Below are positions 19,547 through 22,952 of a DNA stretch of 64,000 bases, in pieces. Source of the DNA: Escherichia coli (lineage in GTDB: Bacteria > Pseudomonadota > Gammaproteobacteria > Enterobacterales > Enterobacteriaceae); NCBI RefSeq assembly GCF_044647545.1, contig NZ_CP172818.1, one strand, 5' to 3'. The notes under the pieces were generated by a model. That model was not told the origin of the DNA. It made no database searches and saw nothing but the letters and a program-made list of their open reading frames with translations. Each line of letters begins with the position of its first letter. The first letter of the stretch is position 1. Both the position numbers and the translations under genes were made by a program.

Positions 19547-21649
19547 TCACTCAAATCGCCACGCAACATTCACGCCGATACCATAATTTCGTCCGGGCGC
19601 AGGTTCGTAATATCGCCCGTTTGACTCATTGACAATGACAGAACCAACGTATTCTTTATCGAATAAATTATCGACACGACCAAATAAATCCACGGTTAAA
19701 TTGTGGTAATTGTATTTATACCCGGTGAATAAGCCGACGAGTGTATAAGACGGCGCTTTTGCCGTATTTTCATCATCTGCCATAATATCGCCCATATAAC
19801 GCGCTTCCGTGCCTGCATACCAACCATCTTCCGGTATATAACCTATCGACGCAAAGCCCATATTACGGGCGATCCCTGGCATCCGGTTACCGTTACAATC
19901 CTGTTCATTGCAAACATTGCTGCGATAGGTCGCATCAAGCCAGGTCCAGGACGCTTTTACGCGAAAATCTCCCGCGAAACGTTGATCCCATGCCAGTTCA
20001 GCGCCTTGACGACGGGTCTTTCCGGCATTTTTGTAAGTCGTACGCCCACCGCTACTGCTATCGACAACAATTTCATCATCGGTGTCGGTCTGGAACAATG
20101 CGAGACTAAGCAGCCCATCACCAATACGCGTTTTACTGCCGATCTCAATTGTATCGTTGGTGGAGGGTTTTAACCCAAAGTTCATACCGCTTTGTCCATC
20201 AGCACGATAAGACAGCTCATTAATCGTCGGCGTTTCAAAACCTCGCCCGGCTGCCAGATAGATATTCCAGGCATCGGTCATTGCATATTTTAACGAACCG
20301 GCAGGTAGCCATTTGTGATAACTGGCATCACCGCTGTCATCGCCGTTACCCGGAGTAACGTAATGGTCGTTGGAATCAAACCACACGGAGCTGTAGCGCA
20401 CGCCAGCATCCAGCGACAGTTTTTCGCTCAGCTGCCACTGCGTCTGTAAATAGGGATCGACGTTCCACATCAGATTGCGTTCGTCGCGGCGCAACTCACC
20501 TTTTTGCCCGTATTCCGGCACGCCGCTATTCAGGCGGAAGTTATTGTAGCCCTTGCGGTTTTCACTCATGTTTTCGTAGTTCAGGCCGGTAGTGAACGTG
20601 AGCGGAACGCCCAGTTCACCACGGTGTGTCCAGCGGCTGTCTATCCCCTGATAATGGCGTTGCAGAGTAATCACGCCGCCCGCATGTGACGGGTTAAGTT
20701 GGGGAGCCATCGGGATTGACTGGTACTGGGTCGTTTCTCGCTCCCCGGCATACATCATCACACTCATCTCATCCCGCGAACTCAGGCTACGCTCATAGCG
20801 CAACCCAGCCTGAGTTTGCTTGATGGTTTTTCGCGTGTCGTACTGTTCAGCGCGTGGCGCTTGTTGCGGATTCGCCTTCCATTCTGCTTCGGTTAGCCCA
20901 CCTGGGTCATCTGCTTTGATATCCACACTATTGAAAATCAGGCTTAATTTGCTGGCGTCATCAATGCGTACGCCCAGTTTGGCATTGGCTAAATTTTTCT
21001 GTGCGCCACTATGGTCACGATAGCCGTGGGTCGTAAAACGCGTGGTTGAGACGGTGTAATCGACATCGCCAGGCTGTGTGCCGTCGCCCGTTGCGCCTGT
21101 TGCTTTCAGCCCATAGCGCCAGCTGCCAAAACTGCCGTAGTAACTACTGGCTTCAATGGTTGGTGGCTGTTGTCCGGTCTGGGTGATGACATTCATTACA
21201 CCGCCAGACGCGTTGCCATACAGAGCAGAGAAGGGGCCACGCAGCACTTCCACATTTTGCACACTGCTTAAATCGATGTTGGATGTTTGCCCTTGCCCGT
21301 CGGGCATGGTGGCGGGAATACCGTCCACATACAGGCGAATACCGCGAATTCCGTAAGTGGAGCGGGAGCCAAATCCGCGAATCGACAGCTGTAAATCTTG
21401 CGCATAGTTCTGCCGGTTTTGTACCTGCAAACCAGGCACGCCAGTCAGTGATTCAGACAAGTTAATGCGCGGTGTTGCCAGGCGCATCTCCTCGCCATCC
21501 ACCACGCTCACGGCTGCTGGGGTATCCAGTTCTGAAATCACCTGCGGCGCGGCACTGACAATCATGGTCTGTTCATCAGCGGCAAAAACAACGGGGGAAA
21601 GGACAAGCAGTGCGGGCAAAACGGTCTGTCGGACGGAAAAAATCTTCAT
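19547..21649 (-). CDS. yncD: TonB-dependent outer-membrane receptor YncD
   Basis: 700 aa; signal peptide, plug and beta-barrel, C-terminal aromatic residue (…NVAWRFE). Confidence 0.92.
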   Translation of the reverse strand: MKIFSVRQTVLPALLVLSPVVFAADEQTMIVSAAPQVISELDTPAAVSVVDGEEMRLATPRINLSESLTGVPGLQVQNRQNYAQDLQLSIRGFGSRSTYGIRGIRLYVDGIPATMPDGQGQTSNIDLSSVQNVEVLRGPFSALYGNASGGVMNVITQTGQQPPTIEASSYYGSFGSWRYGLKATGATGDGTQPGDVDYTVSTTRFTTHGYRDHSGAQKNLANAKLGVRIDDASKLSLIFNSVDIKADDPGGLTEAEWKANPQQAPRAEQYDTRKTIKQTQAGLRYERSLSSRDEMSVMMYAGERETTQYQSIPMAPQLNPSHAGGVITLQRHYQGIDSRWTHRGELGVPLTFTTGLNYENMSENRKGYNNFRLNSGVPEYGQKGELRRDERNLMWNVDPYLQTQWQLSEKLSLDAGVRYSSVWFDSNDHYVTPGNGDDSGDASYHKWLPAGSLKYAMTDAWNIYLAAGRGFETPTINELSYRADGQSGMNFGLKPSTNDTIEIGSKTRIGDGLLSLALFQTDTDDEIVVDSSSGGRTTYKNAGKTRRQGAELAWDQRFAGDFRVKASWTWLDATYRSNVCNEQDCNGNRMPGIARNMGFASIGYIPEDGWYAGTEARYMGDIMADDENTAKAPSYTLVGLFTGYKYNYHNLTVDLFGRVDNLFDKEYVGSVIVNESNGRYYEPAPGRNYGIGVNVAWRFE

Positions 21650-21781
21650 GAAAAAAGCCAGGTTAAGAATGGGAAAACGCCGTCATGGTAATAAAATTGT
21701 AAATTTATGGAAAACGAAACGGCACGATACGTTAAGTAATTGAGAAAATTGTAGTCGTAACGGCAAGAAATGCTCCACATT

Positions 21782-21804
21782 TGATAAAATAATGATTACC
21801 ATTC
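21782..21804. promoter_or_regulatory. Putative Fur box in the yncD-yncE divergent promoter region
   Basis: tgataaaataatgattaccattc matches about 13 of 15 core positions of the Fur consensus GATAATGATAATCATTATC; roughly 90 bp upstream of yncE. Confidence 0.55.
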
Positions 21805-21890
21805 CCATTTATAACAAAAGCGTAACGATGATTACGCTTAGCGAAGCATTGTGAAGCAGCAAAAATATCGGTTCATCAAAGGGAGTCGTC

Positions 21891-22952
21891 ATGCATTTAC
21901 GTCATCTGTTTTCATCGCGCCTGCGTGGTTCATTACTGTTAGGTTCATTGCTTGTTGCTTCATCATTCAGTACGCAGGCCGCAGAAGAAATGCTGCGTAA
22001 AGCGGTAGGTAAAGGTGCCTACGAAATGGCTTATAGCCAGCAAGAAAACGCGCTGTGGCTCGCCACTTCGCAAAGCCGCAAAGTGGATAAAGGCGGCGTG
22101 GTTTATCGTCTTGATCCGGTTACTCTGGAAGTGACGCAGGCGATCCATAACGATCTCAAGCCGTTTGGTGCCACCATCAATAACACGACTCAGACGTTGT
22201 GGTTTGGTAACACTGTAAACAGCGCGGTCACGGCGATAGATGCCAAAACGGGCGAAGTGAAAGGCCGTCTGGTGCTGGATGATCGTAAGCGCACGGAAGA
22301 GGTGCGCCCGCTTCAACCGCGTGAGCTGGTAGCTGATGATGCCACGAACACCGTTTACATCACTGGTATTGGTAAAGAGAGCGTGATTTGGGTCGTTGAT
22401 GGCGAGAATATCAAACTGAAAACCGCCATCCAGAACACCGGTAAAATGAGTACCGGTTTAGCGCTGGATAGCAAAGGCAAACGTCTTTACACCACTAACG
22501 CTGACGGCGAATTGATTACCATCGACACCGCCGACAATAAAATCCTCAGCCGTAAAAAGCTGCTGGATGACGACAAAGAGCACTTCTTTATCAACATCAG
22601 CCTTGATACCACCAATCAGCGTGCATTTATCACCGATTCTAAAGCGGCAGAAGTGTTAGTGGTTGATACCCGTAATGGCAATATTCTTGCGAAGGTTGCG
22701 GCACCGGAATCACTGGCTGTGCTGTTTAACCCAGCGCGTAATGAAGCCTACGTGACGCATCGTCAGGCAGGTAAAGTCAGTGTGATTGACGCGAAAAGCT
22801 ATAAAGTGGTGAAAACGTTCGATACGCCGACTCATCCGAACAGCCTGGCGCTGTCTGCCGATGGCAAAACGCTGTATGTCAGTGTGAAACAAAAATCCAC
22901 TAAACAGCAGGAAGCTACCCAGCCGGACGATGTGATTCGTATTGCGCTGTAA
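21891..22952 (+). CDS. yncE: Periplasmic beta-propeller (PQQ-like repeat) protein YncE
   Basis: 353-aa ORF with signal peptide. Confidence 0.9.
   Translation: MHLRHLFSSRLRGSLLLGSLLVASSFSTQAAEEMLRKAVGKGAYEMAYSQQENALWLATSQSRKVDKGGVVYRLDPVTLEVTQAIHNDLKPFGATINNTTQTLWFGNTVNSAVTAIDAKTGEVKGRLVLDDRKRTEEVRPLQPRELVADDATNTVYITGIGKESVIWVVDGENIKLKTAIQNTGKMSTGLALDSKGKRLYTTNADGELITIDTADNKILSRKKLLDDDKEHFFINISLDTTNQRAFITDSKAAEVLVVDTRNGNILAKVAAPESLAVLFNPARNEAYVTHRQAGKVSVIDAKSYKVVKTFDTPTHPNSLALSADGKTLYVSVKQKSTKQQEATQPDDVIRIAL

Follow-up and report, generated by a model that had tools for sequence, protein, structure and literature searches.

The segment at 21785..21809, within the intergenic spacer between the divergently transcribed genes pqqU (formerly yncD) and yncE of Escherichia coli, is overall best explained as the Fur operator of the yncE promoter, through which Fur represses yncE, a reading to which a probability of roughly 0.9 is assigned. 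Coordinates refer to the window, that is, the whole 64-kb stretch of DNA that was analysed, and the features discussed are collected in Table 1. The Fur box at yncE is already known, having been published in 2003, and is an ordinary Fur operator; its description, together with iron-dependent expression of the gene, is attributed to McHugh et al. (2003), in which yncE induction reportedly reaches up to 18-fold.

Table 1. Features of the pqqU/yncE region, with positions in the window (or locus identifiers), strand and basis.
Feature	Position or loci	Strand	Basis and remarks
pqqU (formerly yncD), TonB-dependent PQQ importer, 700-aa ORF	19547..21649	minus	ORF list and RefSeq annotation
Intergenic spacer pqqU/yncE, 241 bp	21650..21890		Between divergent ORFs
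Marbox-like block ACGGCACGATACGTTAAGT	21719..21737	plus	One mismatch to AYNGCACNNWNNRYYAAAY; pqqU side of the spacer, outside the Fur operator
Predicted -35 hexamer of yncE, TCCACA	21774..21779	plus	Within the conserved block CTCCACATT (21773..21781)
Fur operator, two overlapping 19-bp matches 6 bp apart	21785..21809		Consensus and matrix scans, ChIP-exo peak, conservation
Predicted -10 hexamer, TACCAT (TACTAT in most genera)	21797..21802	plus	Inferred; inside the Fur box
Stem-loop, 7-bp stem AGCGTAA/TTACGCT, loop CGATGA (CCATGA in most genera)	21819..21838	plus	RNAalifold and pair counts
Leader block GAAGCATTGTGAAGCAG	21843..21859	plus	Conserved; complementary to the RyhB core (about nt 41-58)
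yncE, periplasmic seven-bladed beta-propeller protein, 353-aa ORF; gene under operator control	21891..22952	plus	ORF list and RefSeq annotation; published data on fur mutants and on iron limitation
yncE loci without adjacent pqqU	L026, L027, L029, L031, L034, L035, L037, L041, L082, L093		Several Citrobacter genomes

On the sequence level, the string tgataaaataatgattaccattc is found at exactly 21782..21804, where an earlier note on this DNA had placed it and called it a close match to the Fur consensus. That wording was overstated, as a search of the whole window with the consensus GATAATGATAATCATTATC at up to 3 mismatches returned no 19-mer at all; full mismatch counts and a matrix were used after this empty search. 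What does stand is the rank of the site, since 21788..21806 outranks every other 19-mer of the window, about 128,000 positions being counted over the two strands, and agrees with the consensus at 15 of 19 positions on the minus strand and at 14 of 19 on the plus strand; ten other entries in the window reach 14/19 in the same count. The conserved core, 21786..21809, extends about 5 bp further in the 3' direction than tgataaaataatgattaccattc.

The matrix was palindromic and was derived de novo by expectation-maximisation with 1,350 seeds from 13 other K-12 Fur promoters (the spacers of fepA-fes, fepD-entS, fepB-entC, fhuA, fiu, fhuE, sufA, cirA, exbB, feoA, nrdH, mntH and nfeF-nfeR), the yncE site being excluded. 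The consensus it settled on, AATGATAATCATTATCATT, is the canonical Fur box; its information content is 17.9 bits, and the ryhB promoter, outside the training set, scored 25.0 bits. In the matrix scan, which the earlier note had proposed as a check, 21791..21809 (AATGATTACCATTCCCATT) scored 15.59 bits and ranked second among 63,982 window positions; this value falls within the range of the training sites (11.5-24.4 bits, mean 19.8) and was attained by 28 of 5000 dinucleotide shuffles of the spacer. A second, overlapping site at 21785..21803, 6 bp upstream, scored 11.74 bits, and two overlapping 7-1-7 motifs can be read at 21787..21801 (11/14) and 21793..21807 (10/14). The 19-bp motif match is beyond chance.

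The highest matrix score in the window, 16.55 bits, belongs to 54929..54947 (ATTGATAGGTATTATTATT), in the A+T-rich bdm-osmC spacer, for which the published MG1655 table lists no Fur ChIP-exo peak; this hit is probably a false positive, and the matrix score alone is therefore not decisive. At the other end of the scale, the region of the published adhP Fur peak reaches only about 1 bit on the derived matrix.

Published binding data place Fur on the site itself. In the ChIP-exo study of Gao et al. (2023), peak P54 of strain W3110 spans 1524928-1524940 in NC_007779.1, where the yncE ATG lies at 1525021; it thus covers -93..-81 from the ATG, corresponding to window positions 21798..21810 in the 3' half of the box. 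Peak P44 of MG1655 (1521238-1521250, in older coordinates) falls at the same distance from the ATG once its coordinates are raised by 1,976 bp, and the gene labels of the MG1655 sheet appear, judging from gene coordinates, to be off by one row from about P37. The same sheet holds an extra intragenic peak, P43, at about 21504..21540 inside the 5' end of pqqU, which is marked as absent from Seo et al.; scanning of this region with the Fur matrix found no motif (best score -10.9 bits). For the yncE box itself, neither a footprint nor a gel shift was found in the literature.

At the level of expression, deletion of fur raises yncE by log2 3.1 to 8.1 in 8 of 9 strains (3.10 in MG1655, 8.14 in W3110 and 3.6 to 5.5 in six further strains; Gao et al., 2023), which in fold terms is a derepression of 9- to 280-fold. 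The gene is counted in the direct Fur regulons of MG1655 and CFT073, is included in both Fur iModulons, and was listed by Beauchene et al. (2015) with the genes that have Fur bound upstream and whose RNA RyhB increases. Iron limitation induces yncE about 16-fold, with RyhB credited for about 3-fold of this. The proposal that yncE may be iron-regulated through this box is thus borne out by the ChIP-exo peak, by derepression in fur mutants and by the response to iron limitation. In the Reg-Seq supplement, the yncE Fur site is described as not annotated in RegulonDB.

Beyond E. coli, GTDB representative genomes scanned with YncE provided 79 loci from about 20 enterobacterial genera, 72 of them with a usable upstream region, and a site of at least 10 bits is present in 71 of these 72, nearly always at -94..-108 from the yncE ATG. 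The box is conserved in orthologous promoters, and its commonest form, AATGATTACTATTCTCATT, reaches 20.57 bits and outscores the E. coli version (15.6 bits). In a spacer alignment of 19 genera, the longest invariant runs are TAATGATT (21790..21797), ATTC (21801..21804) and CA (21806..21807). In three genomes, those of Pseudescherichia vulneris and two relatives (L045, L051, L054), the Fur box is found closer to the gene, at -55 to -59 and not near -100; the leader of this group is about 40 nt shorter, and the leader hairpin described below may be missing from it.

Within the species, a 1-kb query around the box matches 5,411 of 5,426 complete E. coli genomes, several of them at 100% identity. 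Of 5,426 genomes, 5,384 carry the 32-mer 21786..21817 without change, a near-universal identity that contrasts with the surrounding 1 kb, matched at 99% or more by only 117 records. Six positions of an aligned 441 bp distinguish the window from K-12 MG1655, and one of them, T21785 (G in K-12), falls inside tgataaaataatgattaccattc. T occupies this position in 50 of 5,426 genomes and G in 5,023, K-12 included; the rare T supplies the 'tgata' 5' end of the string, and with it the upstream of the two overlapping sites scores 11.74 bits, against 7.37 with G. Around yncE the window and strain FDAARGOS_497 are 100% identical, yet by maeA the window has fallen about 3 kb short of the record of that strain, which implies an indel somewhere between about 21300 and 52500.

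Taken against these data, the notion that the site is a chance match in A+T-rich sequence, conserved on account of core promoter elements or another factor and not of Fur, is very improbable. It could draw on the moderate agreement with the consensus (14-15/19), on the location of the window's highest matrix score in an A+T-rich spacer for which no Fur peak is reported, and on the overlap of the box with a predicted -10 hexamer that would be conserved in any case. It is already contradicted by published binding and expression data, namely the ChIP-exo peak on the site in two K-12 strains and the strong derepression of yncE in fur mutants of eight strains; furthermore, conservation spans about 20 bp that track the Fur motif and not merely a hexamer, the sites of other genera score higher on the Fur matrix than that of E. 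coli, and few shuffles attain the observed score.

How Fur represses from this position depends on the geometry of the promoter. On the plus strand, a sigma-70 scan gave no promoter at 9/12 or better, and no transcription start of yncE or pqqU was found in the accessible text of the literature, so that the overlap of the box with the -10 can only be inferred. In the alignments, TACCAT/TACTAT is the only invariant -10-like hexamer, with the conserved TCCACA 17 bp upstream, and from this predicted -10 the yncE start would lie near 21809..21811. The block CTCCACATT, notably CTCCAC-T at 21773..21780, varies little or not at all across 19 genera, and the CTCCAC block, like the box, has been kept by Citrobacter genomes without pqqU. 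Its non-consensus C residues are conserved and could mark the site of another factor. Two further hexamers were considered and rejected: TATAAC (21810..21815) as a -10, which is not conserved and would place the start within the stem of the hairpin, an element that begins at 21819 and must lie in the transcript; and TTGATA (21781..21786) as a -35, which has the wrong spacing to any -10 and depends on the rare T at 21785.

An alternative geometry, in which Fur acts as a roadblock to transcription that starts near 21770 from a MarA/SoxS/Rob-type class II promoter, with the box in the early transcribed region, appears unlikely. It would accommodate the MarA site at -41.5 of yncEp, reportedly the only one that RegulonDB annotates for this promoter and there weakly supported, and the best marbox-like sequence of the spacer, ACGGCACGATACGTTAAGT, whose centre near 21728 would set +1 near 21770 and the box at about +16..+40. 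There is, however, no acceptable -10 hexamer at 21757..21763, that stretch is poorly conserved, and the marbox-like block, conserved in genera with pqqU, has been lost from the Citrobacter genomes without pqqU, which have kept CTCCAC and the box; the poor conservation of the stretch and the loss of the block make the roadblock less likely. In addition, the MarA site was not recovered by the Reg-Seq study, and a weaker marbox-like sequence at 21760..21779 would give +1 near 21811, which fits occlusion. The degenerate marbox pattern occurs at chance frequency across the window, and the block at 21719..21737 could serve either pqqU or yncE. Under either occlusion or roadblock geometry, Fur is positioned to repress yncE.

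With the promoter placed as predicted, regulation by occlusion would proceed as follows. Under iron-replete conditions, Fe2+-Fur would bind 21785..21809, probably as two dimers on the overlapping sites 6 bp apart, and would cover the predicted -10 and the start region, so that RNA polymerase would be excluded and yncE repressed. Under iron limitation, Fur would leave and yncE transcription would rise many-fold, and RyhB, itself Fur-repressed, would then pair with the yncE leader and so raise expression post-transcriptionally by a smaller amount, the Fur and RyhB controls on yncE together forming what would be a coherent feed-forward loop.

A separate question is which of the two genes the operator serves. 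The suggestion that the receptor gene may be iron-regulated as well is not generally supported, since in fur deletions yncD is unchanged in MG1655 (log2 0.12, p = 0.39) and rises only in W3110 (2.95) and EC042 (2.02), placing it within the Fur regulon of 2 of 9 strains only (Gao et al., 2023). Hantke and Friz describe YncD/PqqU as a high-affinity, TonB-dependent PQQ uptake system and report that a yncE mutant behaves like its parent, while Grinter and Lithgow find that PqqU does not support growth on iron sources and, citing McHugh 2003 and Seo 2014, state that yncD is neither Fur-regulated nor iron-induced. Evolutionary co-occurrence of the Fur site with pqqU, assessed through yncE loci without adjacent pqqU, was not found: at least 10 Citrobacter genomes in which the 3 kb upstream of yncE contain no pqqU retain the box before yncE, at 17-21 bits, together with about 75 bp upstream of it, and their upstream junctions are of at least 3 different kinds. 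Because the box persists before yncE where pqqU is absent, it belongs to yncE and not to pqqU. Of two genomes both named C. youngae, one carries pqqU and the other does not.

A shared bidirectional operator, from which Fur would repress both genes and bring PQQ uptake under iron control, is an unlikely reading. The ChIP-exo table of W3110 assigns the peak to both yncD and yncE, the rise of yncD in that strain is highly significant (p = 2.7e-51), a review names yncD/yncE among head-to-head pairs whose overlapping UTRs could explain joint co-purification, and one promoter-like site on the minus strand (21855..21828) would put the box downstream of the pqqU start. Yet yncD stays flat in MG1655 despite the same box sequence, its regulon membership is confined to the two strains, two groups report that it answers neither to Fur nor to iron and provides no iron, the hexamers of the minus-strand site lack conservation as promoter elements, about 150 bp separate the pqqU start codon from the centre of the box, and the box is kept where pqqU is missing; in W3110, where the divergent yncE promoter is activated roughly 280-fold, yncD may rise as a side effect of that activation.

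Downstream of the operator, the yncE leader holds two conserved elements. The stem of the hairpin (21819..21825 with 21832..21838) covaries across 66 sequences, with 97.2% of cells paired against 32-50% in slid-column controls and 87 cells changed on both sides, values that none of 500 shuffles reached; all 7 pairs show compensatory changes across genera, and the loop C(C/G)ATGA is nearly invariant. The many G-U pairs indicate a plus-strand RNA. A terminator scan had flagged a terminator-like hairpin on the minus strand, which was rejected, as the G-U pairs become A-C mismatches on that strand and nothing upstream needs terminating. Rfam, searched at permissive thresholds over 21500..22050, returned chance-level hits only and no family for the hairpin. 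When the leader and the first 35 nt of the coding sequence were folded across 43 genomes, the hairpin alone was supported, and a long-range structure over the ribosome-binding site, seen in a single-sequence fold, found no support in that set.

The second element, the block GAAGCATTGTGAAGCAG, is likely a RyhB pairing site, to judge from its complementarity. Its duplex with the RyhB core, calculated with the core only because the full-length calculation was uninformative, has an energy of -23.1 kcal/mol against -16.6 +/- 3.1 for shuffles, 34 of 1000 of which reach it, a modest degree of statistical support in E. coli; the complementarity is stronger in Raoultella and Klebsiella. Activation of yncE by RyhB is published; no description of a RyhB pairing site on yncE was found in the literature, and according to a review CopraRNA ranked the RyhB-yncE interaction poorly.

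Compared with known systems, the yncE site resembles the classical Fur boxes (fhuA, cirA, fiu, fepA-fes, sufA, ryhB) in its 19-bp palindrome, readable as two overlapping 7-1-7 repeats, in Fur occupancy under iron-replete conditions and in derepression in fur mutants; a location in the core promoter is predicted for it too. In E. coli it is weaker than these, at 15.6 bits against a training mean of 19.8 and 25.0 for ryhB, and, unlike the classical targets, YncE has no demonstrated role in iron uptake. Like the enterobactin spacers (fepA-fes, fepD-entS, fepB-entC), the pqqU/yncE spacer carries a Fur site between divergent genes, one of which encodes a TonB-dependent receptor; in the enterobactin cluster, however, both arms are listed Fur targets, whereas here the response is consistent on the yncE arm alone and is limited to 2 of 9 strains on the pqqU arm, and the receptor beside the yncE box imports PQQ and not an iron chelate. 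A Fur/RyhB feed-forward arrangement has been described for cirA, and RyhB activation also for shiA, and the conserved yncE leader block shows complementarity to the RyhB core; no conserved structure sequestering the yncE ribosome-binding site was found in the folded leaders.

As a discovery, the operator carries little weight, since yncE has been known as a Fur-repressed gene with a Fur box since 2003 and is included in each of the recent Fur regulon studies consulted. Its value lies rather in a correction, in that the operator is that of yncE and the place of the receptor gene beside a Fur box is not evidence of iron transport, and the exact coordinates and conservation data could support a curation entry in RegulonDB. 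More tentatively, and with less than even confidence, the leader hairpin and the RyhB-complementary block may form an uncharacterised post-transcriptional module for RyhB activation; separately, and as guardedly, the rise that pqqU shows in fur mutants of some strains could link iron status to PQQ scavenging in some lineages.
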